A stretch of 64,000 nt of DNA, taken from positions 1,306,743-1,370,742 of the forward strand of contig OZ241325.1 in the NCBI GenBank assembly GCA_965200025.1. Direction: 5' to 3'. Position 1 is the first letter of the stretch. Each line of letters starts with the position of its first letter. Below the pieces are notes generated by a model. The model was not told where the DNA came from. It saw only the letters and a list, made by a program, of their open reading frames with translations, and ran no database searches. A program made the position numbers and the translations under genes. The stretch is from Bdellovibrionales bacterium. GTDB taxonomy: Bacteria; Bdellovibrionota; Bdellovibrionia; Bdellovibrionales; UBA1609. Of the stretch, positions 10,518 through 45,902 are shown piece by piece.

Positions 10518-10880
10518 ATGTTTAATTTTATAGCCACCATTCATATTATTGCCTCTGTAGTGATGATTGTTTTTATCCTGCTCCAGGATCCCAAGGGGGG
10601 GGCTATGGGAATGTTTGGAGGAGGATCTTCCAGCCTGTTTGGCAGCACGGGGGCCAATCAGTTTTTGTTAAAAGTCACAAAATGGACAGCTGTTGTTTTT
10701 GCCTGCACCTCCATCTATCTGGCGGCTTTAAGTTCCCAAAAAGGACCCAGTGTACTGGACCAATACACTCCGGAAGCCACTCAAAGCACCCCACCTGCCA
10801 CAGCAACAGAAGATACCAACCCCGCAAACAAAAAAGAGGAAGTACCTGCTTCAAACCCCTTACCACCAAAACAACAATAA
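10518..10880 (+). CDS. secG: preprotein translocase subunit SecG
   Basis: Two TM helices flank the motif LLQDPKGGAMGMFGGGSSSLFGSTGA, which is typical of SecG. The start is set at MFNF; the track gives TTG 10482. Confidence 0.85.
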   Translation: MFNFIATIHIIASVVMIVFILLQDPKGGAMGMFGGGSSSLFGSTGANQFLLKVTKWTAVVFACTSIYLAALSSQKGPSVLDQYTPEATQSTPPATATEDTNPANKKEEVPASNPLPPKQQ

Positions 10881-10910: not shown

Positions 10911-11312
10911 ATGTTAAATACCACCAAAAAAGGCTTTCAGAAAAAAATCTTTGTTTGTTTTATAAAATGGCCGGGTTTGTTTTTTCTTTTGGTTTTTTCT
11001 TTTGGTCATAGTGGGAGCTTAAAAAAAGAAAAACCACCGGGGTTTTACTCTCACTATATGGACCAGGTGGTGACAAGAAAAAAAAAGCTCTTGAAAACAA
11101 AATGCCTGAAACTGAAAGACAAAAAAGACAAAGGTTTTATGATGCTTGAGCTTAAAGTGTCTTTAAAAGGGGCTGTGGACACCCGGGTGATGAATACAGA
11201 GATTAAGAGTAAAAAATTTATTCAGTGTGCTTTGAATGTTCTTAACAGAACCCACTTCAAAACCCCTCCCACAAAAACTTTAAGCCGCATTTACAGGTTT
11301 TTTATCCTGTAA
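10911..11312 (+). CDS. hypothetical secreted protein, AgmX/TonB-C-terminal-like
   Basis: An N-terminal hydrophobic anchor is followed by a C-terminal pattern (C..L....GFMMLELKVSLKGAV......KFIQCALNVLNRTHFKTPP) that resembles TonB-C/AgmX-type domains. Confidence 0.35.
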   Translation: MLNTTKKGFQKKIFVCFIKWPGLFFLLVFSFGHSGSLKKEKPPGFYSHYMDQVVTRKKKLLKTKCLKLKDKKDKGFMMLELKVSLKGAVDTRVMNTEIKSKKFIQCALNVLNRTHFKTPPTKTLSRIYRFFIL

Positions 11313-11383: not shown

Positions 11384-11461
11384 GACCACGTAGCTCAGTC
11401 CGGATAGAGCAAGAGTTTCCTAAACTCTAGGTCGCAGGTTCAACTCCTGCCGTGGTCGCCA
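11384..11461 (+). tRNA. tRNA-Arg (anticodon CCT)
   Basis: Hand fold: acceptor GACCACG/CGTGGTC, D arm GCTC..GAGC, anticodon arm AGAGT-TTCCTAA-ACTCT, T arm GCAGG-TTCAACT-CCTGC, and an encoded CCA. Confidence 0.9.
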
Positions 11462-11548: not shown

Positions 11549-11563
11549 ATGTAATTTTTACAT
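11549..11563. promoter_or_regulatory. 15-nt palindrome ATGTAATTTTTACAT, candidate operator upstream of paralogue A
   Basis: Arms ATGTAA/TTACAT lie 49 nt upstream of the -35 box. Equivalent palindromes lie upstream of the two other paralogues (17365-17379 and 19352-19366). Confidence 0.35.
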
Positions 11564-11611
11564 CTCCAAATGTAAATAATACCACTCAAAAATCTTTTTT
11601 TAATTTTAAAC

Positions 11612-11639
11612 TTGACAAAAAAATGGGGGGGGGTAAAAA
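11612..11639 (+). promoter_or_regulatory. sigma70-like promoter TTGACA-N16-TAAAAA with a G9 tract in the spacer
   Basis: The 29-nt string cttgacaaaaaaatgggggggggtaaaaa is identical to 19403-19431. It lies 52 nt upstream of ATG 11691. Confidence 0.5.
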
Positions 11640-11690
11640 GACCTCTCCAAGAGGGAAGCTACCTCATAAACTGCTCCAAAGGAGAAAAAA

Positions 11691-12599
11691 ATGATAAAAA
11701 TTAAAATTTTAAAAGCTTTGTTTTTTGTTTGTGCCATGCTTTCTTATGAATCTCACGCTGGTTTTTGTGAAATTTTTTTTTCAAAACCAGTGTCACAAAA
11801 ATCAAAAACCCCCAAACCTATAGATATAAATAAAATTTTAAAACAACCATTAACCCAAAAGCAGAAGGATTTTTTGTCTGGTAAGGATTTTCTCCGAATC
11901 GTTCGGGGTGACAATATCTCTGACAGAAGTATACTGGATGTTTTGGAAAACGGGTTTAGTGCAGTGGATTTGGAAGCCATCCTGTTAGAATCAAACCCCA
12001 AACATGGTCCAGTCCTGGTGAAACAACTCTATGAGTTCATGTCTGCGGTCAATACCCTGCAAACAAGGCTGGGTCAAACAACACCCATGAGTGTCCCTCA
12101 AATAGCATTGGTGAAAAAAATAAACCAGAAAGTACACTTAATAGACAGTAATTCATCATATACCAATAAAAACGCATGGTATGAGTCTCTCAGAGAAGAT
12201 TTACAGGAATTGGTAGAGCATTCCCAGTCACAAAAAGATTTTACAGACTTGGTAAAAGGGGAACACAACCAGATAACTTTATCAGATAGGGGTCATAGTG
12301 ACTGGATGAACTATCTTCAAAACAGAAAACAAGCGGAAAAGGAAATGGGAAAAACTTTAACTCACAACCAGGACCGGCAGATTTTTTGGACACAATTTAA
12401 CCTGAGAAAAAAAGAATATCCAGGAGAAAAAACTCTAGAAGAACAACCTCTATTTTCCGTTCAGGCATTTATAGATTCAGATTTCAGTACTGTGGATTTG
12501 AAGATTCTTGTGGATCACAATATACTAACCATAAAGGAATGGCAAAAAACCATGATAAAGATGCATATTGAAGATTATGAAACCAAAAAATCCCTTTAA
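11691..12599 (+). CDS. secreted hypothetical protein, paralogue A of a three-member family
   Basis: It has a signal peptide, a Cys just after the cleavage region (HAGFCEIFF), an LT....F motif and repeated GF...(D/E)(L/I)..L(L) motifs (NGFSAVDLEAILLE, SDFSTVDLKILVDH). These are shared with ORFs 16377-17243 and 19450-20274. Confidence 0.6.
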   Translation: MIKIKILKALFFVCAMLSYESHAGFCEIFFSKPVSQKSKTPKPIDINKILKQPLTQKQKDFLSGKDFLRIVRGDNISDRSILDVLENGFSAVDLEAILLESNPKHGPVLVKQLYEFMSAVNTLQTRLGQTTPMSVPQIALVKKINQKVHLIDSNSSYTNKNAWYESLREDLQELVEHSQSQKDFTDLVKGEHNQITLSDRGHSDWMNYLQNRKQAEKEMGKTLTHNQDRQIFWTQFNLRKKEYPGEKTLEEQPLFSVQAFIDSDFSTVDLKILVDHNILTIKEWQKTMIKMHIEDYETKKSL

Positions 12600-12756
12600 A
12601 ACCTAACCTGCCAAAGAGGGGATAATCAGATCTCACAGCAAAAAACTCAAGCCCCATAAGTTTTAAACTGACAAGGGGGGGGCTTTTGTATGCAGTATAA
12701 AAATGGCATTTCTTACTTGCCAAAAGGCTGTTTTTTACATAAAAGTAAAAATTAAG

Positions 12757-13689
12757 GTGAATTCCATAAAAATTTTAACAGGTACAGCCCATCCCCATTT
12801 TGCACAGCAGGTGGCCCGGCAGATGAACCTTCCCCTGTGTGAGTGCCAGGTTTCCCGTTTTACGGACGGGGAGGTGCAGGTGCATATCAGGGAAAGCATC
12901 AGGGGCTGCCATGTTTTTATTCTTCAGGGGACCTCCCCCCCGGTGAATGAAAATTATATGGAATTGTTTATCATGATGGATGCTGTTCGCAGGGCCTCTG
13001 CCCAGGAGATAACAGTGGTCATGCCTTATTACGGTTATGGAAGGCAGGACCGAAAAGCTGCTGCCCGCACCCCCATATCGGCCAAATGTGTGGCTGATTT
13101 GCTCCAGGTCAGTGGGGCCAAAAGGCTTTTGGTGGTAGATCTCCACGCCCCTCAAATACAGGGTTTTTTTAAAGGTCCGGTGGATAATCTTTTTGCATGG
13201 CCTGTGATGGCCCGCACCTGGAAAGAGCAAATGAAAGACAAAAATCCCGTGTGTGTCAGCCCGGATGCAGGGGCTTTGGAGCGTACACGGGCTTTTGCCA
13301 AAAAAATTCAAAGCCCCATTGCTGTGATAGACAAAAGAAGGCCAGAGCCAGGCATAGCCAGGGCTTTTCATGTGGTGGGGGATATCAAAGATAAAACAGC
13401 TCTCATTATAGACGATATGATTGACACCGGGGGAACCCTAACCGCAGCGGCTGAAAAGCTTCTTCAAAAAGGGGCAAAGGAGGTGTATGCCATGGCCACC
13501 CATGCGGTGTTTTCAGGTTCTGCACTCCAGCTGATAGAAAACAGCCCTTTGAAGGAGGTTTGGGTTACAGACACCATACCACTGAGGCAAAAAGCCAAAA
13601 AAATACGCTGTGTTTCTGTAGCTCCCCTGGTGGCAGAGGCCATTCGCCGTATCGATTCCAAAGGTTCTGTCAGTGCCATGTTTGATTGA
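12757..13689 (+). CDS. prs: ribose-phosphate pyrophosphokinase (PRPP synthetase)
   Basis: Motifs YYGYGRQDRK, DLHAPQIQGFF and the PRPP-binding loop LIIDDMIDTGGTL. The GTG start at 12757 is inferred from the usual N-terminus; the track start is 12703. Confidence 0.9.
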   Translation: MNSIKILTGTAHPHFAQQVARQMNLPLCECQVSRFTDGEVQVHIRESIRGCHVFILQGTSPPVNENYMELFIMMDAVRRASAQEITVVMPYYGYGRQDRKAAARTPISAKCVADLLQVSGAKRLLVVDLHAPQIQGFFKGPVDNLFAWPVMARTWKEQMKDKNPVCVSPDAGALERTRAFAKKIQSPIAVIDKRRPEPGIARAFHVVGDIKDKTALIIDDMIDTGGTLTAAAEKLLQKGAKEVYAMATHAVFSGSALQLIENSPLKEVWVTDTIPLRQKAKKIRCVSVAPLVAEAIRRIDSKGSVSAMFD

Positions 13690-13747
13690 TTTTTTTAGTG
13701 ACAAAAAAAACCAGGGCATGTATATATCAAAACCCTGAGGTAAAATC

Positions 13748-14491
13748 ATGTCTGCAAATGGAAAAGAGCTTTATTTTGATGTGGATCTCAGAGGTGTGGG
13801 GACTTCTGAAGCCCGCAAGGTTCGCCGCCAGGGCAGGGTACCGGCGGTGGTTTATGGAAGCAGTGCCAAATCCATACCCCTGTACTTAAGCTTAAAAGCT
13901 GCTGAAAAATACATCAAAAAAGCTTATGACAACAAAATCTTTACCTTCAAGTCAAAATCCAAAGAACTTAATGGATTAAAGGTCCTTAAAAAAGCCGTCA
14001 GCTATCACAAACTGAACAGAAAACCCTTACACATGGATTTTTTCTCTTTGGATATGAACAAAAAAGTGAGGGTGAATGTGGAGGTGCAATTCACTGGCCA
14101 GGCCAAAGGGGTTAAAGAATCCGGAGGGGTTTTTAGTGCCACCAGGAGAAATGTGGAAATAGAGTGCCTGCCGGGGGAAATCCCCGATTTTTTTTCCATT
14201 GATATAAGCCCTTTGGATATGAACCAAAGCTTCCATGTTCAGGATCTTAAAATTCCCTCTCATATTAAGCTTATCACACAAAAACAAAGCACTCTTTGTG
14301 CAGTCACAGAACTTAAAGAGGAGGAAAGCCCGAAAGAAGCTGCTGCGGCGGACAAAGCCGCCTCTTCCGGGGAAAAAACCAGTACCACCACACCAGCGGC
14401 CACTGAAGGGGAAAAACCCACTACTGCCACTTCCTCCACCGAAAGCAAAGCCCCTGCTGTAAAAAAAACAAACACAAAAAAAACCAAATAA
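13748..14491 (+). CDS. rplY: 50S ribosomal protein L25 / general stress protein Ctc
   Basis: The N-terminus RKVRRQGRVPAVVYG and the beta-rich Ctc core are followed by a low-complexity A/T/K tail. Confidence 0.85.
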   Translation: MSANGKELYFDVDLRGVGTSEARKVRRQGRVPAVVYGSSAKSIPLYLSLKAAEKYIKKAYDNKIFTFKSKSKELNGLKVLKKAVSYHKLNRKPLHMDFFSLDMNKKVRVNVEVQFTGQAKGVKESGGVFSATRRNVEIECLPGEIPDFFSIDISPLDMNQSFHVQDLKIPSHIKLITQKQSTLCAVTELKEEESPKEAAAADKAASSGEKTSTTTPAATEGEKPTTATSSTESKAPAVKKTNTKKTK

Positions 14492-14497
14492 CAAATC

Positions 14498-15091
14498 ATG
14501 AAAATGATAGTGGGTTTAGGTAATCCGGGGCAAAAATACCTGCTCACTCCGCACAACATAGGATGGATGGTACTGGATCATCTCTGCCACCATTTAAACC
14601 CCCCTTTAAAAAACCCGGCTGTAGCGGCTTTGTGGAAAACAAAATCACCTTCTTATCTTTACTGTTCGGTGCTTTTAAACCCTTACAAAATCCTGCTTCT
14701 TAAGCCTTTAACTTATATGAATCTTTCCGGCAAAGCGGTTAAAGAGGCTATGGGCTATTATAAAATCGCTTTGGAGGATTTACTGGTGGTGCACGATGAC
14801 ACCGACCTTCCTTTTTTATCCATGAAGTTTCAGGTGGATCGGGGTGCTGCCGGTCACAATGGGATTAAGAACATTCACACTGAATTACAAAGTCAAAATT
14901 ACGCCCGTCTGCGGGTGGGGATGCAGCAGACAGTCAAAAGGCCTCCCATAAAAAGAAATGTTTTAAAACCCTTTACCCCGGAGGAACAAAGCCTTTTACC
15001 TTCTTTTTTGGATTCTGCCACCGAGGCCCTTGTTTATTTTATACAGGAGGGGGTAAAAAAAACAGCCGATCGTTATAACAAAAAATCATAA
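14498..15091 (+). CDS. pth: peptidyl-tRNA hydrolase
   Basis: Motifs MIVGLGNPGQKY..TPHNIG and HDDTDLP..GHNG. Confidence 0.9.
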   Translation: MKMIVGLGNPGQKYLLTPHNIGWMVLDHLCHHLNPPLKNPAVAALWKTKSPSYLYCSVLLNPYKILLLKPLTYMNLSGKAVKEAMGYYKIALEDLLVVHDDTDLPFLSMKFQVDRGAAGHNGIKNIHTELQSQNYARLRVGMQQTVKRPPIKRNVLKPFTPEEQSLLPSFLDSATEALVYFIQEGVKKTADRYNKKS

Positions 15092-15201
15092 GGAAGGTTT
15101 TTTTTATTTCCCGGATTAAGAAAGCTCACAAACCCAAGTGTGACACAAAGGTTTTTTATCCTTGCCACAGGGCCGTCAAAGAGTTTACATTTGTTTTTAC
15201 G

Positions 15202-16380
15202 ATGAAATGCGGTATTATTGGCCTTCCCAATGTGGGCAAAAGCACTTTGTTTAATTGCTTAACCTCTCTTAAAATTCCTGCAGAAAATTACCCTTTCTGT
15301 ACTATTGATCCCAACATAGGAAGGGTGGCGGTGCCTGATCAAAGGCTTTCCACCTTAAAAGAGATTTTTAAACCGGAAAAAACCACCCCCACCAGCATGG
15401 AATTTGTGGATATTGCGGGTCTCATCCCTCAGGCCCACAAAGGTGAGGGCCTGGGAAACCGGTTTTTAAGTCATATACGCGAAACCGATGCTTTAATCCA
15501 TGTGGTCCGCTGTTTTGAAGACGAAAAAGTCTCTCACACTCAGGGAGGGGAGTTAAACCCCCTTCAGGATGTGGAGCTGATTGAAACAGAGCTTTTAATG
15601 GCAGACTTAAGTACCCTGGAGCAGCGACAGCAAAAACTGCAAAAGCTTTTAAAAGGCTTTCAAAAAAAAGAACTCCTAAAAGAGCATCAACTGGTTCAAA
15701 AACTCTTAACCCACATTTCAGAAAAAAACAAACCAGCCGGGAAGTACCCTTTAACTTCCGAAGAGGATGTGTATTTTAAACCCTTAAACCTTTTGACTGC
15801 CAAACCGGTTTTGTATGTCTGTAATACAGATGAAACCTCCCTTCTGGCAGACTTAAAAAACTCAAACTCCCCCTCAGAACATGCCTCATCTGTTACAGAC
15901 GGAAAAAAAACTTTATTAAGTAAGAATACTCCCTCCCCCAGCCTCTTGCAAAAAATGAAAACCAAATACCCGGCCTCCTCTTTAATGCCTGTTTGTGCCA
16001 ATATGGAGGCAGAGGCTTTGGCTTTTGAATCCGAGGGGGAGAGGCAAAGTTTTCTCTCAAGTATGGGGTTAAAGGAATCAGGACTTTCCCGGTTGATTAA
16101 AAAATCCTATAGCCTTTTAAATCTTATCACTTTTTTTACAGCAGGACCCAAAGAGTGCCGGGCATGGACTGTTAAACAGGGTAGCAAGGCCCCTCAGGCG
16201 GGAGGCTCTATCCACAGTGATTTTGAAAAAGGTTTTATCAAAGCAGAAGTTTATGCTTTTGAAGATTTAAAAAGACTAAAATCAGAGGCAGAAGTTCGAA
16301 AAGCAGGACTCTTAAGACAGGAAGGTAAAAATTATGTGATTCAAAATGGAGATATTGTGTTCTTCAAATTTAATGTCTAA
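15202..16380 (+). CDS. ychF: ribosome-binding ATPase YchF (Obg-like)
   Basis: G1 motif GLPNVGKSTLFN, EFVDIAGL and a TGS-like end (IHSDFEKGFIKAEV...DGDIVFFKFNV). It also has an S/P/K-rich internal insertion relative to typical YchF. Confidence 0.95.
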   Translation: MKCGIIGLPNVGKSTLFNCLTSLKIPAENYPFCTIDPNIGRVAVPDQRLSTLKEIFKPEKTTPTSMEFVDIAGLIPQAHKGEGLGNRFLSHIRETDALIHVVRCFEDEKVSHTQGGELNPLQDVELIETELLMADLSTLEQRQQKLQKLLKGFQKKELLKEHQLVQKLLTHISEKNKPAGKYPLTSEEDVYFKPLNLLTAKPVLYVCNTDETSLLADLKNSNSPSEHASSVTDGKKTLLSKNTPSPSLLQKMKTKYPASSLMPVCANMEAEALAFESEGERQSFLSSMGLKESGLSRLIKKSYSLLNLITFFTAGPKECRAWTVKQGSKAPQAGGSIHSDFEKGFIKAEVYAFEDLKRLKSEAEVRKAGLLRQEGKNYVIQNGDIVFFKFNV

Positions 16381-17243
16381 ATTCTGCCGTTCAAAGCGGG
16401 ATTATATTGCTCTGGAGGAAACACCACAGAGTTTCCCTCTCTTTTTGCCTCATCGGTTTTTTTCCTTAAAAATACCAAAAAAGCTTTATGCTTGTCTTCT
16501 TTCAATGTAAATTCGGTTTCAGGGGCAACAACCAGTAAGCTTTCCATTCCCCCCTTTTGCTGATTTTTAGGGAAGGAATGTAGCAGCTGTTCATATTTTT
16601 GCCCCAGCTTTTTCATCAAAGAATCAAGAGAATAAGACAAAGGGTCATTTTCTTTGTGAGTATTGATTTTATGAACACTATATGAAATCTCATGCCAAAG
16701 ATTTAGTTGATCAGCACTCAGAGGCTTGTCTGTCTTGTTTAAAAGATGCTCCATTTCATGAACTCTACTGATAAACTGAGGAATTTTAGAGTGAACATTT
16801 GTACCTTTCACCTTTAAAATACGCTTACCTGCCAATACATTTATGTCCTCCATACTAAATCCAGCTCCCATCAATTCTATAAAACTCGAAAAATGGAATC
16901 CATACAGGTTCCGTCTACTAAACAAGTTTCTCTTACTTATATACTCCCGGTTCGGTTCACCAAAGGTTGTGTTGATGAAAAAAGGGCTGTGGAGTTCACT
17001 TCTTATGAAAATGATTTCATCAACGGTGAGCTTCCTGTTTAAGGCATTTTCCATCTTTGTTTTTAACATTTTTAATTTCACTTTGAATACTCTGTCGTCC
17101 AATTTCGGTCTCAGTTCTTTCACTCCGTATTCTATCAGATCGTCTATTTTTTCTATAAATAAGTCCTTACAGGAGGCCACACTCACAGTATAGCCTTCCA
17201 CACAAAAAACCATTACTACAGCAAAAACAAAACCCTTAAACAT
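16377..17243 (-). CDS. secreted hypothetical protein, paralogue B of the three-member family
   Basis: Signal peptide, the motif VASCKDLFI, KLTVDEIIFIRS and AGFSMEDINVLAGK. It sits behind the same promoter/palindrome architecture as A and C. Confidence 0.6.
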   Translation of the reverse strand: MFKGFVFAVVMVFCVEGYTVSVASCKDLFIEKIDDLIEYGVKELRPKLDDRVFKVKLKMLKTKMENALNRKLTVDEIIFIRSELHSPFFINTTFGEPNREYISKRNLFSRRNLYGFHFSSFIELMGAGFSMEDINVLAGKRILKVKGTNVHSKIPQFISRVHEMEHLLNKTDKPLSADQLNLWHEISYSVHKINTHKENDPLSYSLDSLMKKLGQKYEQLLHSFPKNQQKGGMESLLVVAPETEFTLKEDKHKAFLVFLRKKTDEAKREGNSVVFPPEQYNPALNGRI

Positions 17244-17302
17244 CTTTCAAACTCCCTTAAAAAAGTTGCTTTCATCACATTCATGTGGCTTTACCAAAAT
17301 CC

Positions 17303-17330
17303 ACTTTAACCCCTCCCATTTTTCTGTCAA
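17303..17330 (-). promoter_or_regulatory. sigma70-like promoter TTGACA-N16-TAAAGT (interrupted G tract)
   Basis: The minus strand reads cttgacagaaaaatgggaggggttaaagt. This matches the 29-nt A/C promoter with a few substitutions, and the G run is broken (GGGAGGGG). Confidence 0.4.
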
Positions 17331-17364
17331 GTTTTTTATGTTTTTTTGTTTCATCTTATTTTTA

Positions 17365-17379
17365 GTGTAAATTTTACAC
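17365..17379. promoter_or_regulatory. 15-nt perfect palindrome GTGTAAATTTTACAC, candidate operator upstream of paralogue B
   Basis: The 7-bp arms GTGTAAA/TTTACAC lie 34 nt upstream of the -35 box on the minus strand. Confidence 0.35.
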
Positions 17380-17425
17380 CGCCCTTAAGATGTAGCAGGA
17401 AGATTTTACAATTTTTATATTTGTT

Positions 17426-18172
17426 TTAAGAAAACACTGATTTTAAAAAACGCAGCATTTCCTGCCAGGAGGATTTTTCCACCTCTGCATTGTAAGCTGT
17501 GTCGATGTTAAACTTTTTACCATTCTCTGTTGCCTGAGGGTTGGTAAAACCATGGGCTGCACCCGGATAGCTGATAAACTTACAGTCTGCCTGTTTGACC
17601 TCCATTTCTTTTTTAAAATTTTGCACATGCTCTGCGGGAATCATGCTGTCGTTTTCCCCATGGCAGACCAGTATTTTGGTTTTTATCGAAGAGGGAAAAG
17701 AATTTTCCTCAGCCAGAAGCCTTAAACTTCCATGGAAGCTGACCACCCCCTTAAGCTGCTCTGTCCCCATACGGGCCAAATGAATGGACAAAGCCCCCCC
17801 CAGGCAGTGACCTATGGAAGCCCTTTGATGGGGCAGAACCTGTGCCTGAGAACTTAACACTTTAAGGCAATTCAGCAGTTTTTTTGTGGTACTCTCCATG
17901 TTGGCAAGAGTGTTCTTCATCATCGCTGTAGCCTCAAGGGCTGTGGCAGCCAGTTTGCCCTCCCCGTACAGGTCAACGGCCAAAGTGGTGTAACCTTCTT
18001 TGGCCAACCTCAAGGCACGGTTTTTCATGTTTTCTGTCAGGCCCCAAAACTCAGGCAAAACCATAACAGCAGGAAAAGAATCTGAACTTCCCGCAGAAGG
18101 GGAAAAAAGCACTGATCGGGACACAGAATCTTCAAAAGGTATATTTAATGCCCGGGTTTGAATTTGGCTCAT
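17426..18172 (-). CDS. dienelactone hydrolase family protein
   Basis: Alpha/beta-hydrolase layout with the nucleophile motif IGHCLGG and a C-terminal AAHGF. 248 aa. Confidence 0.8.
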   Translation of the reverse strand: MSQIQTRALNIPFEDSVSRSVLFSPSAGSSDSFPAVMVLPEFWGLTENMKNRALRLAKEGYTTLAVDLYGEGKLAATALEATAMMKNTLANMESTTKKLLNCLKVLSSQAQVLPHQRASIGHCLGGALSIHLARMGTEQLKGVVSFHGSLRLLAEENSFPSSIKTKILVCHGENDSMIPAEHVQNFKKEMEVKQADCKFISYPGAAHGFTNPQATENGKKFNIDTAYNAEVEKSSWQEMLRFLKSVFS

Positions 18173-18312
18173 TTTTTTCCTCCTTTTTTTAAGGGATACA
18201 CTTTGTGGTCAAGATAAAAGCTTAAAACAAACATTTTATGCCCTATAAATCAAGGCTGTTTCTGCCAAAAAATTCAAACATTCACCTTTTTGGATTTTTC
18301 TTTAAAAAAAGC

Positions 18313-18924
18313 TTACTTTTTATCTTCAGGCAGGATTTTTGAGTAAGAAAATGTTTTTCTGTGCAGGGGGCAGGGGCCTTTTTGTGCCAAAATCAGGCGA
18401 TGACGGGCTGTACTGTATCCCTTATGAGAGGCAAAACCATAGTGGGGAAAAAGCTTGTCCTTTTTTTTCATCCATTGATCTCTTAAGACTTTGGCCACAA
18501 TACTGGCAGCCCCAATGGGTGCAAAGTTTTTGTCCCCTTTGATACAAGGTGTTTGTTTTAAGCCTTTTGGCAGATGCGGCAGGGGAAAGGGGCCATCCAC
18601 CAAAACATGCCCTTTTAACAGGGTTTTTCCCTTAAAAGTGGGAAGATTGAGCAGGGCTCTTTCCATGGATAAAAAACTGGCCTGAAGAATGTTGTATTTG
18701 TCTATTTCCTGCACAGAAGCCTGGCCCACGCCGTAACAGTGATCCGCCATAATTTCCCCTGCCAGAACCTCTCTTTTCTCAGGGGTGAGGGCTTTTGAAT
18801 CCGGGTAGTTTTTATGACCACTCAAAATCACAGCTGCTGCAAAAACGGGACCTGCCAGGCAGCCCCGGCCCACTTCATCCACCCCTATTACCGGATGAGG
18901 TTGAAACGAAGCCCACTGCCTCAT
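18313..18924 (-). CDS. rnhB: ribonuclease HII
   Basis: VIGVDEVGRGCLAGPVFAAAV catalytic motif and ASIVAKV. Confidence 0.9.
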   Translation of the reverse strand: MRQWASFQPHPVIGVDEVGRGCLAGPVFAAAVILSGHKNYPDSKALTPEKREVLAGEIMADHCYGVGQASVQEIDKYNILQASFLSMERALLNLPTFKGKTLLKGHVLVDGPFPLPHLPKGLKQTPCIKGDKNFAPIGAASIVAKVLRDQWMKKKDKLFPHYGFASHKGYSTARHRLILAQKGPCPLHRKTFSYSKILPEDKK

Positions 18925-19271
18925 GAGTTTTTTGTTAAAGAATCAGACAGGGAAACAGTGGCAGCTTTTTCATCTTCATAAATATTCTGATCAGGTACAC
19001 TTTTCTGACTGGCAAGCATACGGCGAAATTCAGACCCCACACAACAAAACCTGAGCTGGGAACACTCTCCCAAATCCTTAATTGTTTTCAGAAAAGGACT
19101 TAAACCATCTGAACCCACAAAATTCAGACCTTTAAGATTAAAAACGATATTTTTTTTAACCAGCTTGGTCATACAGGTGTTGTGAAAAGGCTCTGTGCAG
19201 GCCAAATCCACCTCTCCCTTTAAATGCACAATAATCACACCTTCTTTGGTTTCTTTTACAAAAGCTTCCAT
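18921..19271 (-). CDS. STAS-domain protein (anti-sigma-factor antagonist-like)
   Basis: About 116 aa with LNFVGSDGL (the SpoIIAA-type DSSGL position). It overlaps the rnhB start by 4 nt. Confidence 0.65.
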   Translation of the reverse strand: MEAFVKETKEGVIIVHLKGEVDLACTEPFHNTCMTKLVKKNIVFNLKGLNFVGSDGLSPFLKTIKDLGECSQLRFCCVGSEFRRMLASQKSVPDQNIYEDEKAATVSLSDSLTKNS

Positions 19272-19351
19272 AGTTTTTTTAGTCTGACCTGTAAAAGGGG
19301 AAATGACAAATGCTTTTATATGTCATCAGGTCTTTAGGCTTACCTGTATCC

Positions 19352-19366
19352 ATGTATTTTTTACAT
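19352..19366. promoter_or_regulatory. 15-nt palindrome ATGTATTTTTTACAT, candidate operator upstream of paralogue C
   Basis: Arms ATGTA/TACAT lie 38 nt upstream of the -35 box. An extra TTTACAT half-site lies at about 19384. Confidence 0.35.
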
Positions 19367-19403
19367 TCTTAATTGAAACCTTTACATTCTTTAAATTCCC
19401 GCC

Positions 19404-19431
19404 TTGACAAAAAAATGGGGGGGGGTAAAAA
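19404..19431 (+). promoter_or_regulatory. sigma70-like promoter TTGACA-N16-TAAAAA with a G9 tract in the spacer
   Basis: It is identical over 29 nt to 11611-11639. GGAG lies 9 nt before ATG 19450. The leader would be very short, so the real start codon or +1 site is uncertain. Confidence 0.45.
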
Positions 19432-19449
19432 ACTTTTGGAGTTTGAAAA

Positions 19450-20274
19450 ATGTTAAAAATATTGCTCTTAATGATTTCGGTGTTTTTCTCTTTACAGGGC
19501 CATACTCTGCCCTGTGATGAGTATTTTAAAACCTCAGGGGAGGATATTCTGATCCAGCAGATAGAAAACACCCTGAAGCGGGAACTCACACCCTACCAGG
19601 TGGGATTTATACAAAAACACATGAAAAAATCAAAAACCCGAAAAAAAAATAATTTTAGCAATTCCATAGCTATAATGAATTTTGTGGAAAGCGGCTTCCT
19701 TATACATGAGATAAGCACACTGCTGCGTAATGGTATTATAAAGGAATCCAGAAAAGCTTTATACAATGATATATATATTATTGAAGCCATGCAATCCGTT
19801 TTAAATCAGGAAGAGCCTCTCAGTCTGACTCAAATTCAGCTTTTACTGAAAGCCAAAGTGTTTATGGATATGATAAAATGGAAAAAACCTGTTGAAATGT
19901 TTGAGATAGAATTTTTTATATCTTACATAGAGCAAATAGCAAACCTTTCACAGGAGGAAAATAAAAACCTGAACTTCAGTGAGTTGGAACATTTCATAAG
20001 AACAGTTTTTAAAGTCTATATAAAAAAAACCTTCCACATCCTTCAGTATGTTGAAAAAAGAGACCGGATAAAGCAACACCTCACAACCTTTAACGGCCTG
20101 GCATTGGCCGGAGCACAAAGAAGGCTTATAAGAAAAAACACATTTGACATTCAACCCCTGTTAAAAAAAGGTTTTACTGTGGAAGATATAAAAACCCTGC
20201 TTAAGGAGGATATGTTTTCTTCTGACCAGAACTTAAAACAACTGGTGCAGGATGCTTTGGATTCTTTAAAATGA
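19450..20274 (+). CDS. secreted hypothetical protein, paralogue C of the three-member family
   Basis: Signal peptide, the motif TLPCDEYFK, ELTPYQVGFIQK, SGFLIHEISTLLRNG and KGFTVEDIKTLLKE. Confidence 0.6.
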   Translation: MLKILLLMISVFFSLQGHTLPCDEYFKTSGEDILIQQIENTLKRELTPYQVGFIQKHMKKSKTRKKNNFSNSIAIMNFVESGFLIHEISTLLRNGIIKESRKALYNDIYIIEAMQSVLNQEEPLSLTQIQLLLKAKVFMDMIKWKKPVEMFEIEFFISYIEQIANLSQEENKNLNFSELEHFIRTVFKVYIKKTFHILQYVEKRDRIKQHLTTFNGLALAGAQRRLIRKNTFDIQPLLKKGFTVEDIKTLLKEDMFSSDQNLKQLVQDALDSLK

Positions 20275-22886: not shown

Positions 22887-22963
22887 CGGAGAGTGGCGCA
22901 GCCCGGTAGCGCATCTGCTTTGGGAGCAGAGGGTCGCAGGTTCAAATCCTGTCTCTCCGACCA
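22887..22963 (+). tRNA. tRNA-Pro (anticodon TGG)
   Basis: Hand fold: acceptor CGGAGAG/CTCTCCG, anticodon arm TCTGC-TTTGGGA-GCAGA, T arm GCAGG-TTCAAAT-CCTGT, and an encoded CCA. Confidence 0.9.
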
Positions 22964-23457: not shown

Positions 23458-25914
23458 ATGAAGTTTAAAGATTTCGCAACTGGAAAACTTGTTAAACTTT
23501 CTCCAGAGGAGAAAGTAAGACAAGAATATGAAAAAATTTTAGTAAATGATTATAGTTATAAAAAATCAGAACTGGATATTGAAGTTTCTATTCCAAGAGG
23601 AACAGGGTATTTCCCAGATTCTGCTGACATTGTCGTGTTTAATTCATCAATTGAAAAAGATCCAGCTGCTAATATATTAGGAATTGTAGAGACTAAACGT
23701 CCTGAAAAAAAAGATGGGTTAGCTCAACTTAAATCATACATGACAGCAACTTCTGCTGTTTGGGGAGTATGGACAAATGGCAATGATATTGCTTATCTTT
23801 GCAAACCTCCCGGAACAAACTCTATTTCAGAAAATTATCTAAATAATATCCCTGCAAGAAATCAATCTCTTCAAGACGTAGGCAGAATAAAAAAACAAGA
23901 TTTAAAACCTTTTGGAAGAGAAGAGCTTAAAACAGCTTTTCGCAGGATTCTTCTCACCCTTTATACAAATACAAATATCAGTCGTAGGGAAAAATTAGGT
24001 GGAGAAATGATAAAGTTGATTTTCTCAAAACTTGAAGACGAAAAAACATACTTAAATCGTGTTCCTGATTTTCGCTCAGAAGCAGGAGAAAAACCAGAAA
24101 CAGTAAAAAAACGAATTGATAAACTTTTTGACAGGGTAAAAAAAGAACTAAAAAATGATGGTGTTTTTCATTTTCATGAAAAAATTACTCTGGAAGCAAG
24201 ATCAGTTGCCTGGGTAGTGGGACAGTTAGAACGTGGAAGTTTATTAAAGACTGATACAGATGTGGTTGGAGATGCTTTTGAAATTTTTGCAGAATCTCCT
24301 TTAAAAGGGGAAAAAGGTGAATTTTTTACACCTCGTGGGGTTATTAAACTTGCAGTAAAGATGACTAATCCAAAACCTGAAGAGTCTATTTGTGATCCTG
24401 CTTGTGGATCAGGTGGATTTCTGATTTATTCCATGAAGCATATATGGAATCTAATGGAACATGATCCTAAATGGAAAGGATCACCTAAATTAAATGAACA
24501 TAAGCAAAGAATAGCCTCACAATCCATATTCGGAATAGATAAAGAGTCTGATTTGGTGAAAATTGCAAAAGCTTATATGGCTATTTCAGGAGATGGAAGA
24601 AGTAATATGGTTTATGAAAATACTTTACATGAAATAAGTAAGTTTTCACCTCTTGCTAAAGAAAAGTTTACAGAAGACAATAAATTCAGAAAATTTGATG
24701 TGATTTTAACTAACCCACCTTTTGGAACTAAAACCAAGGTTGTAAAATCTGATTCCAAAAATTTTCAACTTGGATATCAATGGACAGAAACAATAAAAGG
24801 GAAGTTTAACAAAACCAACAAAGTATGTGAAAGAGAACCACATATATTATTTATTGAACGCTGCCTTGATATGCTTAAAAAAAACGGACGCCTTGCAATC
24901 GTTCTTCCAGAAACTGTGTTTCACGCCCCAAAAGCAGGTTACATCAGGAATTTCATAAAAAATCAAACTAGTATAGAAGCTGTAATTGATTTGCCACATA
25001 ATACCTTTCGACCTCATTGTAACGCAAAAACATGTCTCTTTATTTTACAAAAAGGAAAAAAACAAAATAATAAAGTGATTATGGCTGCTCCCAAAGAAAT
25101 GGGACACAACCATCAAGGAAAGGTTATTTTTAGAAGAGGCACTGAAGAAATATGGGATGATCTAAAAGTGGTAACAAAAGAGTTAGATAATCCTAACCTA
25201 AAAAATAATCAATTCACTTTTTTGGTACCGTGGTCTCAAATCAAAGAGGCTGGAAATCTAGTACCTATTTATTATCAAAATATTTTCAAACCACCTAAAA
25301 TGTTGGAAGGAAGACTTGGCATTAAATTGAGTGATCTTTGTAATCAAAGGGTTTTAGATGCATGGGATGGTCATGGTTCTCCTTCCTCCATATCAAAAGG
25401 ACAAGGAAAAATTCCTTATATCCGTGTGAGTGACATTGTTAATTGGGAATTATACAGAAATCCAGTTACAGGAGTTCCAAAGGAGGTTTATGAAAAAATG
25501 ATTCAAAATAAGAAGAAACCTAAACCAAAAGACATTCTTTTTGTCAGAAGAGGGAGTTATCGTATAGGAACAGTTGCCATGGTATCTCCTCAGGATACAG
25601 AAGTGCTTCTAACAAGAGAGTTACTTACTTTTAGAGTTTTGAATGCAAAAAATCCCTATGGGATTAACCCTTTTTATCTTCTTGGTTTATTATCTTCAGA
25701 ATTTGTACAAAATCAAATACCTTCAAAAGTTTTTATTGATACAACTTTACCAAATATCGGGGATAGATGGAAAGACATTATTCTTCCTGTCCACAAAAAT
25801 AAAAAAGAAATTGAGAATTATACAAATAGAGTTAAGTCTATTATCGATAATAAATGGAAAGCACAAAAAGAAATTCAAAAAATGATAAATGATATAGAAA
25901 ACATTGTAACATAA
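23458..25914 (+). CDS. single-polypeptide restriction-modification enzyme (type IIG-like): PD-(D/E)xK nuclease, gamma-class N6-adenine methyltransferase and an HsdS-like specificity domain
   Basis: The N-terminus matches the HsdR-N-type nuclease domain (EEKVRQEY...SADIVVF...GIVETK; ExK at 23686-23697). The AdoMet motif ICDPACGSGGFLI starts at 24391. The catalytic NPPFG lies at 24712-24726. The C-terminal 300 aa resemble a type I S-subunit TRD (IPYIRVSDI...FVRRGSYRIGTVAMV...FYLLGLLSS). Confidence 0.8.
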   Translation: MKFKDFATGKLVKLSPEEKVRQEYEKILVNDYSYKKSELDIEVSIPRGTGYFPDSADIVVFNSSIEKDPAANILGIVETKRPEKKDGLAQLKSYMTATSAVWGVWTNGNDIAYLCKPPGTNSISENYLNNIPARNQSLQDVGRIKKQDLKPFGREELKTAFRRILLTLYTNTNISRREKLGGEMIKLIFSKLEDEKTYLNRVPDFRSEAGEKPETVKKRIDKLFDRVKKELKNDGVFHFHEKITLEARSVAWVVGQLERGSLLKTDTDVVGDAFEIFAESPLKGEKGEFFTPRGVIKLAVKMTNPKPEESICDPACGSGGFLIYSMKHIWNLMEHDPKWKGSPKLNEHKQRIASQSIFGIDKESDLVKIAKAYMAISGDGRSNMVYENTLHEISKFSPLAKEKFTEDNKFRKFDVILTNPPFGTKTKVVKSDSKNFQLGYQWTETIKGKFNKTNKVCEREPHILFIERCLDMLKKNGRLAIVLPETVFHAPKAGYIRNFIKNQTSIEAVIDLPHNTFRPHCNAKTCLFILQKGKKQNNKVIMAAPKEMGHNHQGKVIFRRGTEEIWDDLKVVTKELDNPNLKNNQFTFLVPWSQIKEAGNLVPIYYQNIFKPPKMLEGRLGIKLSDLCNQRVLDAWDGHGSPSSISKGQGKIPYIRVSDIVNWELYRNPVTGVPKEVYEKMIQNKKKPKPKDILFVRRGSYRIGTVAMVSPQDTEVLLTRELLTFRVLNAKNPYGINPFYLLGLLSSEFVQNQIPSKVFIDTTLPNIGDRWKDIILPVHKNKKEIENYTNRVKSIIDNKWKAQKEIQKMINDIENIVT

Positions 25915-26053
25915 ATGGAAAGTTTAATATATAGTTCTCTAAATTTTTACAGTGGCATTTCTTTTTAAGAGTCAAATCTTTTAAACAAACTGTAACAGAA
26001 GGGCATAAACTTTCTTTCCAGGAGGATTTTTTTAAAAAATAAGGAATTAAATA

Positions 26054-27847
26054 ATGAGAATAATTAAAATTATTATAAATAACTTTAGAGGAGTTAAAAA
26101 AAGTGAAATTTATTTTCCAAATCATGGAGTTCTTGTTGGTGATAGCAATGTAGGAAAATCAACAATTTTTGAAGCCATTGATCTGGTTTTGGGTCCAGAG
26201 AGAATGAGAAAAAAACCAGTTATTGATGAACATGATTTTTTTGCTGGTGATTATTTAAGTTTAGAAAAGAAGTTAATCAAAATTAATATTGAAGTAACAG
26301 CAGTGAATTTAAATAAAGAACAAGAAACCTATTTTAAAGATCATATTGAATGGTGGGATATTAACCAAGGTCAAATTTTAGACAGCCCACCCCCTGAAGC
26401 TACAGATGCAAACACTGTATTATCAGCCATCAGGTTTTCTTTCGAAGGAAAATATGATGAGGAAGAGGACGATTTTATCGGAAACACATATTTTCAACAT
26501 CCATTAAGAGATGATGGAGGAAAAAATCATCTTAGTACAAAAGATAAAAGAATGTGTGGATTTCTTTTTTTAAGAACTCTTAGAACAGGATCAAGAGCAT
26601 TAAGCTTAGAAAGAGGTTCATTGTTAGATATTATTTTAAATATTAAAGAAATTAAAATTAATATGTGGGAAGAGATTTTAGAAAAATTAAGATCTGTTTC
26701 TATTGCTGACAAATCTGAACTGGGAGTGACCAATGTATTATCTGATGTAAAAAAAGAACTAAGCTCATTGGTTACATCTGAATGGGGTACAAATCCTCAA
26801 ATAAAAACTTCTGATCTAACAAGAGAAGGGTTACGAAAAGTACTGAATGTGTTTATGGAAACGGGAGTCAAAAATATAAAAGGCCACAAACATATTGTGC
26901 CATTTAAAAAACAAGGAACAGGAACAATCAACATGCTGGTTCTTTCAATGCTATCCATAATTGCAAATTTAAAACAAAATGTAATTTTTGCAATGGAGGA
27001 ACCTGAAACAGCAATACCCCCATATACTCAAAAAAGAATCATCAATCATATTAGAAAAAATTCAACTCAAGCACTTTTTACTTCTCATAGTCCCTATGTA
27101 TTGGAAGAATTTGATCCTTCAGAGATTATTGTTCTCACTAATAGATTAGGTTTTATGGAATCAAAAAAAGTTACATTCCCAGCACATGTTAAAAGAAAAA
27201 ATTATAAACAGGAATTTAGAAAAAAATATTGCGAAGCGTTGCTGGCAAAAAAAATTTTAATAGTTGAAGGAAAAACAGAATATGATGCAATTCCGGTCGT
27301 TGCCCGTCGATTGCATGAAATCAACTCTCAAAAATTCTCCAGTTTGGAGGCTCTTGGAATAAGCATCATTAATGCTGAAACAGATTCTCAAATTGCATAT
27401 ATTGGGAAACATTTAAAAAACTTGGGAAAAATAACTTTAGCGATATATGACAAACAAGATGACAATCAGAATCTTCCAATAAAAAAAAATATAGATCACC
27501 CATTTGAATCTCCTGAAAAAGGATTTGAAAGCCTTATTATTAATAATGTTCCCTATCAAAAATTAAAGCAGTTTTTTATTGATATTTTTTCAGAAGGAAG
27601 CTGGCCCAGCCACTTATCCCACATAACTCCTAACAACTCTAGTAATGAAGCTGACATTAAAAAAGCTCTGAGTAAATACTTTCAGTGGTCAAAAGGTTTT
27701 GAAACTATAGCTAATTTATTGGAAACATGTAGTGAAAATGAAATTCCTGAATTTATAAAAGATACGCTTCTCTCAATAAAACATAAAGTGCAAAAAAAAT
27801 CTTTATCAGACCATCGAAGCTCTATAGAAAGTAATAATGAAAATTAA
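26054..27847 (+). CDS. gajA: OLD-family ATP-dependent nuclease (ABC-type ATPase + TOPRIM), GajA-like
   Basis: Walker A GDSNVGKST (26138-26164), Walker B-like VIFAMEEPE, then SHSPYV. The C-terminal TOPRIM-like region is ILIVEGKTEYDAIP...INAETDS...AIYDKQDD. The gene is adjacent to and overlaps a UvrD-like gene. Confidence 0.8.
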   Translation: MRIIKIIINNFRGVKKSEIYFPNHGVLVGDSNVGKSTIFEAIDLVLGPERMRKKPVIDEHDFFAGDYLSLEKKLIKINIEVTAVNLNKEQETYFKDHIEWWDINQGQILDSPPPEATDANTVLSAIRFSFEGKYDEEEDDFIGNTYFQHPLRDDGGKNHLSTKDKRMCGFLFLRTLRTGSRALSLERGSLLDIILNIKEIKINMWEEILEKLRSVSIADKSELGVTNVLSDVKKELSSLVTSEWGTNPQIKTSDLTREGLRKVLNVFMETGVKNIKGHKHIVPFKKQGTGTINMLVLSMLSIIANLKQNVIFAMEEPETAIPPYTQKRIINHIRKNSTQALFTSHSPYVLEEFDPSEIIVLTNRLGFMESKKVTFPAHVKRKNYKQEFRKKYCEALLAKKILIVEGKTEYDAIPVVARRLHEINSQKFSSLEALGISIINAETDSQIAYIGKHLKNLGKITLAIYDKQDDNQNLPIKKNIDHPFESPEKGFESLIINNVPYQKLKQFFIDIFSEGSWPSHLSHITPNNSSNEADIKKALSKYFQWSKGFETIANLLETCSENEIPEFIKDTLLSIKHKVQKKSLSDHRSSIESNNEN

Positions 27848-29555
27848 AATATGTGAAAAAAGAAACCGACTACTTTCATCTTCCAATAATTTAATTATTT
27901 TAGGTGGGCCTGGTTCGGGAAAAACCACAATTGCTTTGATAAAAGCAAAAGAAGAAGTAAAATCACTATCAAGTAGTCAAAAAATTTTATTTTTAAGTTT
28001 TGCTAGAGCTACAGTCGCTAAAGTTATCGAAAGCTCATCTCAATATATAGATAAAGTGTCCTTGAAATCCATTGAAATCAATACCTACCATGGATTCTTT
28101 TGGAATATTTTAAGAAGTCATGGTTATCTAATTAACAACAACTATCCTTTCAAAATTTTGAATGCAGCTGACGAGGCTGTGAAGATGGCAAATGTAGATC
28201 CAAAAGACAAGAGTATTACTCGTAAAAAAATATTTGAACAAGAAGGTATTGTAGCATTTAATTTGTTTTCTTCCCTGGTCAATAGGTTATTTTCAGGATC
28301 AAAAAAATTAAAATATATAATCTCAAGATCATATCCCATTATCATTGTTGATGAGTTCCAGGATACCAATATTGAGGAATGGGAAACAGTGAAGCTTTTA
28401 AGTGAAACTTCCAGAATTATTGCTCTCGCTGACCCTAATCAAAGAATCTATGATTTTAGAGGAGCTGATCCTGCTCGAATAGGTCAATTTATTGAGCAAT
28501 TAAAACCAGAAACATTCAATTTTGAAAATGAGAATAACAGGAGTTCAACCAAAGATATAACCACATTTGGAAATGACCTTCTTACAGGAGAAAACCAAAG
28601 AAAACAATATCGTGATGTCAAAATCTTTTTTTACAAATATTACGGAAATAACCGTCATGAAATCTATCATCCACTTAAAACGAAAGTAATGGAAGGAATT
28701 AAGAGATTAAATACCGGTATAGACTGGTCAATTGCAATATTACTCCCTACAAAATCTCAAATGTTACAAGCATCAAATTATTTTTCTTCTTCAAAAGACA
28801 AGTTACCTATTATTGAACATGATGTTGCCATTGACTCTGAAGGACCTGAACTTGCTGGAAATTTATTTGCTAAATTATTGGAAAATTTTACCTCAATAGA
28901 AGAAATAAAAAAGCAGATTATTATTCATCTCATAGACCACTTGAAAGGCAGAAAAGGAGATAACCCCACACAACAGGATTTAAAACTTTCAAGAGCATTA
29001 CAAAATTTGTTAAGTAAAAATAAAATTACTGGAACAAGACGGTTAAAATTAATAAAAGAAATAGAATTAATTGCCAATAAAAGATTTAATCTGAGATTCA
29101 CAGGTAATCCTTTGGATGATTGGCGAAGTAATGTAGATTTATTTAATAACTATAAAAATGAAGATGCTTTAAAAAATATCAAAGAAGATGCAAAGTATAT
29201 AAGATTATTACATATAGGTTCTCATCTCAGAGAATCTTTAAATCGCTCCTGGAAAGATTATGGTTGTTACAATAATGCCAGTAAAAATTTTCGATCAGTA
29301 ATTCAGAAAGAAAATTTATCCACAAATATTAAAAAATCTTCCAAAATTAATATAATGACTATACATAAATCCAAAGGAAAACAATTTAATGAAGTTTTTC
29401 TTTTTGAAGGACTTTATACAGGTCGATTTGTACGACAACCAAAAGAACAAAAAAGTGTTGACCAATCCAGATTAATCTTAAGAGTCGGTGCCACAAGAGC
29501 AATGGATCGGGTCACCATATTATCTCCTGATAGTAAAAAGTGTGAAATACTATAA
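27837..29555 (+). CDS. gajB: UvrD/PcrA/Rep-family SF1 helicase, GajB-like
   Basis: Motif I GGPGSGKTT (27903-27929), motif II IIIVDEFQDTN (28350-28364), TIHKSKGKQF and VGATRAMDRV. It overlaps the upstream gene by 11 nt. Confidence 0.8.
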   Translation: MKIKICEKRNRLLSSSNNLIILGGPGSGKTTIALIKAKEEVKSLSSSQKILFLSFARATVAKVIESSSQYIDKVSLKSIEINTYHGFFWNILRSHGYLINNNYPFKILNAADEAVKMANVDPKDKSITRKKIFEQEGIVAFNLFSSLVNRLFSGSKKLKYIISRSYPIIIVDEFQDTNIEEWETVKLLSETSRIIALADPNQRIYDFRGADPARIGQFIEQLKPETFNFENENNRSSTKDITTFGNDLLTGENQRKQYRDVKIFFYKYYGNNRHEIYHPLKTKVMEGIKRLNTGIDWSIAILLPTKSQMLQASNYFSSSKDKLPIIEHDVAIDSEGPELAGNLFAKLLENFTSIEEIKKQIIIHLIDHLKGRKGDNPTQQDLKLSRALQNLLSKNKITGTRRLKLIKEIELIANKRFNLRFTGNPLDDWRSNVDLFNNYKNEDALKNIKEDAKYIRLLHIGSHLRESLNRSWKDYGCYNNASKNFRSVIQKENLSTNIKKSSKINIMTIHKSKGKQFNEVFLFEGLYTGRFVRQPKEQKSVDQSRLILRVGATRAMDRVTILSPDSKKCEIL

Positions 29556-45696: not shown

Positions 45697-45787
45697 AAGC
45701 AGAAAAATTTATAAAAAAATAGTATGTTTTGAACTTCACAGGGGAACAAACAGGTAAAATTTACACTAAACAAGCACTCCTCAATGC

Positions 45788-45821
45788 ACCCACTTCCCCA
45801 CGCGGGGAAAAGCAAGTGGGT
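45788..45821 (-). other. nested stem-loop immediately 3' of tRNA-Gly(CCC)
   Basis: Outer 8-bp stem ACCCACTT/AAGTGGGT and inner CCCC-ACGC-GGGG (plus-strand reading), 6 nt after the tRNA CCA. No U-tract follows, so its role (terminator or processing) is unclear. Confidence 0.3.
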
Positions 45822-45827
45822 ATCAAA

Positions 45828-45902
45828 TGGAGCGGGAGACGGGACTCGAACCCGCAACCCTCAGCTTGGGAAGCTGATGCTCTACCATTGAGCCACCCCC
45901 GC
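45828..45902 (-). tRNA. tRNA-Gly (anticodon CCC)
   Basis: Hand fold: GCGGGGG acceptor, anticodon arm TCAGC-TTCCCAA-GCTGA, T arm GCGGG-TTCGAGT-CCCGT, and an encoded CCA. The 3' half is identical to tRNA-Gly(TCC) at 48234-48310. Confidence 0.9.

Follow-up and report, generated by a model that had tools for sequence, protein, structure and literature searches.

A palindrome and a conserved promoter core shared by three genes of an exported-protein family in a Bdellovibrionota-like bacterium

Between their -35 and -10 promoter elements, the porA and opc genes of Neisseria meningitidis carry poly-G or poly-C tracts, and variation of these tracts is documented. The vlp genes of Mycoplasma hyorhinis are multi-copy and share a conserved promoter/5' region and signal peptide, with a poly-A tract in the spacer. 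In Legionella, the Dot/Icm effectors controlled by PmrA or CpxR are non-homologous proteins without Sec signals, and the motifs bound by these response regulators are tandem repeats. The Bordetella genes fim2, fim3, fimX and fimN share a conserved "fim box" and a "C-stretch" promoter element, and the length of the tract sets transcription (PMC1891110). Here we describe three genes (A, B and C) in a 64-kb stretch of DNA from a Bdellovibrionota-like bacterium (the window), each of which is preceded by a palindrome and a 29-nt promoter core. We think it probable, at about 0.55, that they belong to a family of exported proteins, peculiar to this lineage, whose genes are under the joint control of a dimeric DNA-binding protein at a sigma-70-type promoter.

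The core has the layout CTTGACA-A6-T-G9-TAAAAA, with a spacer of 16 nt at all three loci (Table 1). A and C are identical at 29/29 positions, and B agrees with them at 24/29; within the spacer 16/16 positions are kept between A and C, and 13/16 in comparison with B. A 25-nt promoter pattern, allowing up to three mismatches, matched solely at 11612-11636 (+), 19404-19428 (+) and 17330-17306 (-) in the 64 kb, while 100 shuffles gave 0 matches. An independent repeat search of the window recovered a direct repeat between A and C (D1), an inverted pair between A and B (I1) and a B/C match (I10), the last of which covers a ribosome-binding/start region, GGAGTTTGAAA.ATGTT, common to B and C. The first-pass annotation had reported this promoter string as identical in A and C and variant in B; within the 64 kb it is restricted to the upstream regions of the three family genes. 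Conservation starts at CTTGACA and stops at the -10 hexamer.

The -35 hexamer TTGACA matches the consensus at 6/6 positions in A, B and C. The -10 hexamer of B (TAAAGT) has an A at -11 and a T at -7; those of A and C (TAAAAA) have the A at -11 and no T at -7. To judge from their letters, the hexamers of the cassette are of the ordinary housekeeping (sigma-70) type and the promoter is near-consensus. The more general pattern TTGACA-N16-18-TAnnn[AT] occurs at five sites in the window, three of which are the family promoters; a fourth, at 62204, has the same TTGACA-N16-TAAAAA and precedes an unrelated gene. The spacer and -10 hexamer of A and C (11618-11639 and 19410-19431), A6-T-G9-T-A5, form an almost perfect homopurine mirror repeat, and the B counterpart, GAAAAATGGGAGGGGTTAAAG, is roughly mirror-symmetric too. 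Homopurine mirror repeats of this sort can form triplex DNA (H-DNA) under supercoiling.

Outside the window, the pattern TTGACANAAAAATGGGN{3,9}TAAA proved too loose when run over genome contigs: none of the chance matches listed, at least 112 in number, came from the source genome. When metagenomes were scanned for the 29-mer, its G tract being allowed to vary in length, two contigs matched (L113, 11858-11883; L114, 1048-1073). Both matches read CTTGACAAAAAAATGGGGGGGTAAAAT, in which the tract is G7 and the spacer 14 nt long, and both are located not far 5' of the start of an open reading frame (ORF). Since the database is very large these are probably chance matches, and they were set aside as coming from unrelated organisms; one contig carries a SpoIVA-like ORF, which suggests a Firmicute, and the other a phosphoenolpyruvate carboxykinase, both read from translation.

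The palindromes are dyads of the form TGT-N7-ACA, of an odd length of 13 bp and with an AT-only centre. The perfect TGTA-N5-TACA is found exactly three times in the 64 kb (11550-11562, 17366-17378 and 19353-19365), against 0.46 expected by chance, and, as had been claimed from the first reading of the sequence, it stands 5' of each gene; it does so exclusively at the family genes. Each promoter string has a perfect palindrome 33-47 nt away on its upstream side, and the distance from the dyad centre to the -35 hexamer is 42-56 nt at the three loci. Dyad positions relative to transcription (Table 1) assume that a transcript begins approximately 35 nt downstream of the first nucleotide of that hexamer. 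At A and C the perfect dyad is followed, at exactly 21 bp, by a second one with one mismatch, and the A pair is shifted with respect to the C pair by 11 bp, which is one helical turn. Two dyads two turns apart and moved by one whole turn are as expected for a protein bound to one face of the helix, and the phasing of A and C thus adds support for a putative protein-binding site.

The operators of E. coli LexA (CTGT-N8-ACAG), TyrR (TGTAAA-N6-TTTACA), the LacI/CcpA type (TGWAANCGNTNWCA) and CRP (TGTGA-N6-TCACA) provide no fit to the dyads, the spacing being off by at least 1 bp in each case, and a literature search on the dyad motif found nothing. The palindromes were also considered as terminators and rejected as such, their hairpins being very weak (-1.6 to -3.4 kcal/mol). 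One-mismatch palindromes elsewhere in the window were dismissed as AT-rich background, none of them being accompanied by a promoter string.

A link had been suggested between the B palindrome and a tRNA-associated hairpin at 48330-48355 (GTGTAAAACCC/GGGTTTTACAC). The two share 7-nt arm ends, and this is coincidence: the hairpin is a different structure, much stronger than the three palindromes (11-bp stem, -11.3 kcal/mol) and without a TGTA-N5-TACA match. It sits in a direct repeat upstream of tRNA-Gly(TCC), the repeat reaching the edge of the gene, and it recurs from approximately 48470. The region 43621-48500 contains two paralogs resembling elongation factor G (691 and 693 amino acids), each downstream of a tRNA-Gly gene.

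The proteins specified by A, B and C are distant paralogs. Pairwise BLASTP revealed significant similarity (A-B, 4e-6; A-C, 3e-5; B-C, 1e-3) with 23-27% identity, and the motifs from which the relationship was first proposed, C-x-x-(F/L/Y)-F, LT....F(I/L) and GF..(D/E)(I/L), are found in all three. A family hidden Markov model searched against the six-frame translation of the window matched only A, B and C (E 1e-65 to 1e-98). In a codon alignment the amino-acid identity among them is 21-23%, and third codon positions are 32-35% identical, compared with the 26-27% expected from composition; since this is near random, synonymous sites are essentially saturated. Upstream DNA outside the core is 33-56% identical. 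The earlier statement that the non-coding DNA is far better conserved than the proteins stands, for the core at least (83-100% against near-random third positions), and the retention of the core in the face of saturated synonymous sites argues for selection on the promoter itself, including its spacer, rather than for recent duplication.

The family has at least nine members. With a profile made from four sequences, HMMER identified nine (P0001-P0009) among 1.84 billion representative proteins, with none in any other genome, and all are encoded on one 1,898,558-bp contig of this bacterium. Two word-indexed searches of 5.8 billion proteins gave no further members. Nothing in Pfam reached the gathering score (best values MerR_1, 0.075, and SinI, 0.0025, for one member each), there were no NCBIfam matches and no significant ones in PHROGs, a PDB profile search gave a best, nonsignificant E of 0.17, and Foldseek against the PDB found no significant neighbour (whole protein, best E 1.6; module, best E 1.8). 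The protein family is thus new, restricted to one genome and without detectable structural relatives.

By inspection a signal of the signal peptidase I type is present in 9/9 members, with a basic n-region, 10-15 hydrophobic residues as the h-region and small ones at -3/-1; cleavage sites, assigned by eye and marked here by a slash, include SHA/GF, SVA/SC, GHT/LP, SSA/SV, AYS/VE, NNA/SP, VYG/VK and SLA/EL. This agrees with the signal peptides and nearby Cys residues already noticed in A, B and C. In all nine the signal is followed by one or two residues and then by an invariant Cys in the context C-[E/D/K]-x-x-F, so that the mature N-terminus, again by eye, reads x-x-Cys-[E/D/K]-x-x-Phe. At least 7/9 members have no other cysteine once the signal is removed. 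The invariant residue was considered as a lipoprotein Cys, and this was rejected: residues -3 to -1 are AGF, AGL, VAS, TLP, ASV, SVE, ASP, GVK and AEL, and a lipobox ([LVI][ASTVI][GAS]C) is lacking in 8/9 members, with only B (VAS/C) fitting.

The proteins are soluble and all-alpha, and contain one or two copies of a helical module of approximately 60 amino acids, LTxxQ…GFSxxDIxxL. Using hhalign, residues 45-100 and 214-276 of A were found to be homologous modules (probability 94%, E 1.5e-7), and an alignment of 18 modules, drawn from all nine members, has the consensus ExxLGxxLTxxQ…GFSxxDIxxL. In P0005 the entire protein is duplicated in tandem, and P0006 has an extra module. AlphaFold gave 16 helices for the whole protein, with a predicted local distance difference test score (pLDDT) of 77.5 and a predicted template modelling score of 0.69; for a single module, predicted to fold into five helices, the pLDDT was 86. 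Both models are reasonably confident. P0005 and P0008, which are encoded outside the window, share the C-terminal hexapeptide VDTEWA, which is missing from A, B and C and might be a sorting or interaction tag. The earlier description of the proteins as effector-like holds as far as predicted export, lineage restriction and fast divergence are concerned, with no positive evidence beyond these.

Several observations speak for a common control of these genes. The promoter string occurs three times against 0 expected and the palindrome three times against 0.46, always paired and at family genes only; and the core is conserved while third codon positions are near random and the flanks have diverged. 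From this we infer co-regulation and the binding of a regulator. The dyads would be operators for one dimeric DNA-binding protein, which could contact RNA polymerase from upstream, in a position like that of a class-I activator. Sigma-70 normally needs a T at -7. Since the -10 hexamers of A and C lack this residue, their promoters may be activator-dependent, and the scattered paralogs would then be switched on together. The proteins themselves would probably act outside the cytoplasm, on the surface of the cell or else on prey or host. Of the interpretation given in the first-pass annotation, the paralogy, the confinement of the motifs and the conservation of the core have been upheld, and the connection with the tRNA hairpin has had to be dropped.

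A number of observations weigh against such a regulon. With no T at -7 in A and C, the assignment to sigma-70 is not airtight. The B palindrome (~-77) is 3 bp out of phase with that of C (~-80), and there is no second dyad at B. Because the upstream regions of A and C are homologous, the 21-bp spacing which they share does not amount to two independent observations. In the AT-rich intergenic DNA, one-mismatch palindromes whose centre is AT-only are frequent (14, compared with 1.5 expected), and consequently only the perfect, promoter-linked sites carry weight. No gene for a DNA-binding regulator with a helix-turn-helix was recognized among the ORFs scanned in the window. Lastly, promoters were read for 3/9 family members, namely A, B and C.

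Some of these points would suit an arrangement without a dedicated regulator, which we consider unlikely. The cassette would then be an ancestral upstream region, the core being kept for promoter strength and the AT-rich palindrome being a structural or UP-like element, a site for a nucleoid protein or a chance survivor. Ordinary sigma-70 hexamers, found also at an unrelated gene, are what this would predict, and the frequency of near-matches to the palindrome in AT-rich intergenic DNA, the lack of a regulator gene nearby and the disagreement in phase between B and C all favour it. A promoter spacer, however, is normally free to vary, yet 16/16 and 13/16 positions have been kept here while synonymous sites became saturated. 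The perfect palindrome, moreover, has been retained at 3/3 loci despite intervening sequence that has diverged and changed in length, and perfect sites are seen at family genes only.

The G9 tract raises the question of phase variation, a somewhat slimmer prospect, which would be compatible with a regulon. Slippage in the tract would alter the 16-nt spacing and turn each paralog on or off independently; B, in which the tract is interrupted as GGGAGGGG, would be locked. The uninterrupted G9 lies exactly in the -35/-10 spacer of A and C, an exported, fast-evolving, multi-copy family is a typical substrate for contingency loci, and the Bordetella fim genes provide a precedent in which tract length sets transcription (PMC1891110). 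Against this, no length variation was seen, A and C having the same tract length and B the same total spacer length, and slippage leaves unexplained why A6-T and both hexamers are conserved as well. Furthermore, G/C runs of at least 8 nt are frequent in this DNA (16 in the 64 kb, among them 10595-10602 (secG), 33270-33277 (rpoC), 50351-50360 and 55103-55112, where approximately 0.4 would be expected from base composition alone), and many are in essential genes. They are evidently tolerated, and are not by themselves marks of contingency. Most of the coding runs are explained by codon usage, as GGG is the commonest Gly codon (330/1083) and GGG-GGG is among the commonest Gly-Gly encodings. Intergenic runs at 8962, 12675 and 55103 lie upstream of neighbouring genes.

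More speculative still is a combination of the two, in which G9 switching and a dyad-binding activator would make up a contingency system in a predatory or symbiotic member of the Bdellovibrionota with a small genome. The activator would set the timing of the family and slippage would set which paralog is expressed in each cell, resulting in fim-like combinatorial variation of new exported helical proteins that contact prey or host.

It is very improbable that the 29-mer is instead a transcribed leader, in which an inner ATG (11623, 19415) would open an upstream ORF (uORF), MGGGKK…, allowing translational coupling and a frameshift switch at the G tract. There is an in-frame ATG-GGG-GGG-GGT-AAA-AA in A and C and ATG-GGA-GGG-GTT-AAA in B, and the uORF ends in an ATGA overlapping the start of A, or 4 nt past the start codon in C. 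On the other hand, no Shine-Dalgarno sequence precedes the uORF ATG, the peptide is not conserved beyond residue 6, the B uORF comes to an end long before the gene starts, no consistent promoter was found farther upstream at the three loci, and conservation running from CTTGACA exactly to the -10 hexamer fits a promoter and not a coding leader. A small mobile or gene-converted cassette, such as a miniature inverted-repeat transposable element or an outward-facing promoter, would account for the 29-nt identity of A and C and for the tRNA gene abutting gene A, but is hardly credible given that there are no terminal inverted repeats or target-site duplications and no copies away from family genes in the 64 kb, that the palindrome-promoter distance differs per locus, that the tract of identity is too short and the flanks too diverged for recent conversion, and that, the downstream genes being paralogs, duplication of gene plus promoter is simpler.

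Table 1. Genes, promoter cores and palindromic sites of the three family members in the window; palindrome centres are relative to the inferred transcription start.
Feature	Sequence	Position	Strand	Remarks
Gene A (P0001)		11691..12599	+	302 amino acids; signal peptide; Cys26 in CEIFF; N- and C-terminal LTxxQ…GFSxxDI modules
Gene B (P0004)		16377..17243	-	288 amino acids; signal peptide; Cys25 in CKDLF; N-terminal module alone
Gene C (P0002)		19450..20274	+	274 amino acids; signal peptide; Cys22 in CDEYF; both N- and C-terminal modules
A promoter core	CTTGACAAAAAAATGGGGGGGGGTAAAAA	11611..11639	+	-35 TTGACA 11612-11617; G9 tract 11625-11633; -10 TAAAAA 11634-11639
B promoter core	CTTGACAGAAAAATGGGAGGGGTTAAAGT	17303..17331	-	-35 17330-17325; -10 TAAAGT 17308-17303; G tract broken by an A
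C promoter core	CTTGACAAAAAAATGGGGGGGGGTAAAAA	19403..19431	+	-35 19404-19409; G9 tract 19417-19425; -10 TAAAAA 19426-19431
A operator-like palindrome	ATGTAATTTTTACAT	11549..11563		Perfect TGTA-N5-TACA; centre ~-91
A second site	TGTAAATAATACC	11571..11583		Imperfect, 1 mismatch; centre ~-70
B operator-like palindrome	GTGTAAATTTTACAC	17365..17379		Centre ~-77
C operator-like palindrome	ATGTATTTTTTACAT	19352..19366		Centre ~-80
C second site	TGAAACCTTTACA	19374..19386		Imperfect, 1 mismatch; centre ~-59

The ORFs, promoter strings and palindromes all proved to lie where they had first been placed. Gene A is located between tRNA-Arg(CCT) (11384-11461), directly upstream, and prs. Gene B is convergent with ychF, the stop codons overlapping by 4 nt (16377-16380), and is without the C-terminal module, as if truncated at the ychF boundary. 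Gene C is divergent from a STAS (anti-sigma-factor antagonist) gene (18921-19271), and its palindrome falls in the intergenic region which they share. The G+C content of A, B and C is 35-37%, compared with 42-49% for their neighbours. Since it is confined to one genome, and its genes stand amid housekeeping genes from which they differ in base composition, the family is a recent lineage-specific expansion inserted between such genes.

The best named homologs of YchF are from metagenome-assembled genomes labelled "Bdellovibrionales / Bdellovibrionota bacterium" (50-57% identity). A read-assembly contig of 1982 bp from SRR17504026, without family genes, represents the nearest relative (85%), and the next show 60%. 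The order rplY-pth-ychF is kept in 3/3 long contigs from relatives (55-60% YchF identity), with prs immediately upstream in 2/3; the flanking genes in these three differ from those of the window. A 133-amino acid ORF between secG and tRNA-Arg (10911-11312) has a weak match, E 1e-5 and below the cut-off, to an AgmX/PglI C-terminal domain. As this domain is typical of Myxococcota and Bdellovibrionota, the ORF fits the taxonomic placement. An ORF at 703-1170 contains leucine-rich repeats of the eukaryote type (LRR_8, E 3.6e-15), and a relative with 60% YchF identity (L116) specifies an ankyrin-repeat protein (13473-14309); the clade may be associated with eukaryotic hosts.

Beside tRNA-Pro (22887-22963), the region 23458-29555 contains three genes with a G+C content of 30-33% and approximately 0.20 G+C at third codon positions, compared with ~0.45-0.50 in the rest of the window. 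The first encodes a type IIG-like restriction-modification protein (HSDR_N_2, N6_Mtase and Eco57I), the second an OLD-family ATPase (AAA_15/AAA_21 and TOPRIM) and the third a UvrD-type helicase, the last two together resembling a Gabija pair. The three genes resemble a defence island that was acquired horizontally beside a tRNA gene. At 48958-49041 ARAGORN reported a tRNA with an unassigned 2-base anticodon (Rfam tRNA score 49.8 bits), which is probably a tRNA with a long variable arm, possibly Tyr, that was mis-parsed by the program.

The proteins define a new sequence family. If common control by a dyad-binding protein is confirmed, the cassette would give access to an uncharacterised regulon in a branch of the Bdellovibrionota that has small genomes and is poorly known, and its regulator could be captured with the 13-bp dyad. 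Fast-evolving exported proteins found in this lineage only would then be marked by their common promoter, and would be likely candidates for interaction with prey or host. This is not a new principle of gene control, operator-plus-promoter cassettes kept in families of paralogs being well known.

Among the described systems, the BvgA-controlled fim genes of Bordetella pertussis and B. bronchiseptica resemble the present one in having paralogous exported proteins, a conserved promoter with a G/C homopolymer near the -10 and, putatively in our case, an upstream activator region. They differ in that the proteins are unrelated, ours being all-alpha and not pilins. In addition, the G9 is inside the TTGACA/-10 spacer whereas the 7-22-nt C-stretch replaces the -35 region, and our upstream element is a 13-bp dyad. 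As in porA and opc of Neisseria, the spacer of a sigma-70-type promoter contains a G/C homopolymer, there ahead of a surface-protein gene, but those are single genes, while here we have a multi-copy family with a shared upstream dyad. The vlp genes likewise combine a conserved promoter and a spacer homopolymer with diverged mature proteins; these are lipoproteins clustered at one locus, whereas here 8/9 members have no lipobox and the genes lie dispersed between housekeeping genes. With the effector regulons of Legionella our genes have in common that they are scattered, lineage-specific and fast-evolving with a shared upstream motif, and they differ from them in being paralogs, with Sec signals (by eye) and an inverted repeat as the motif.

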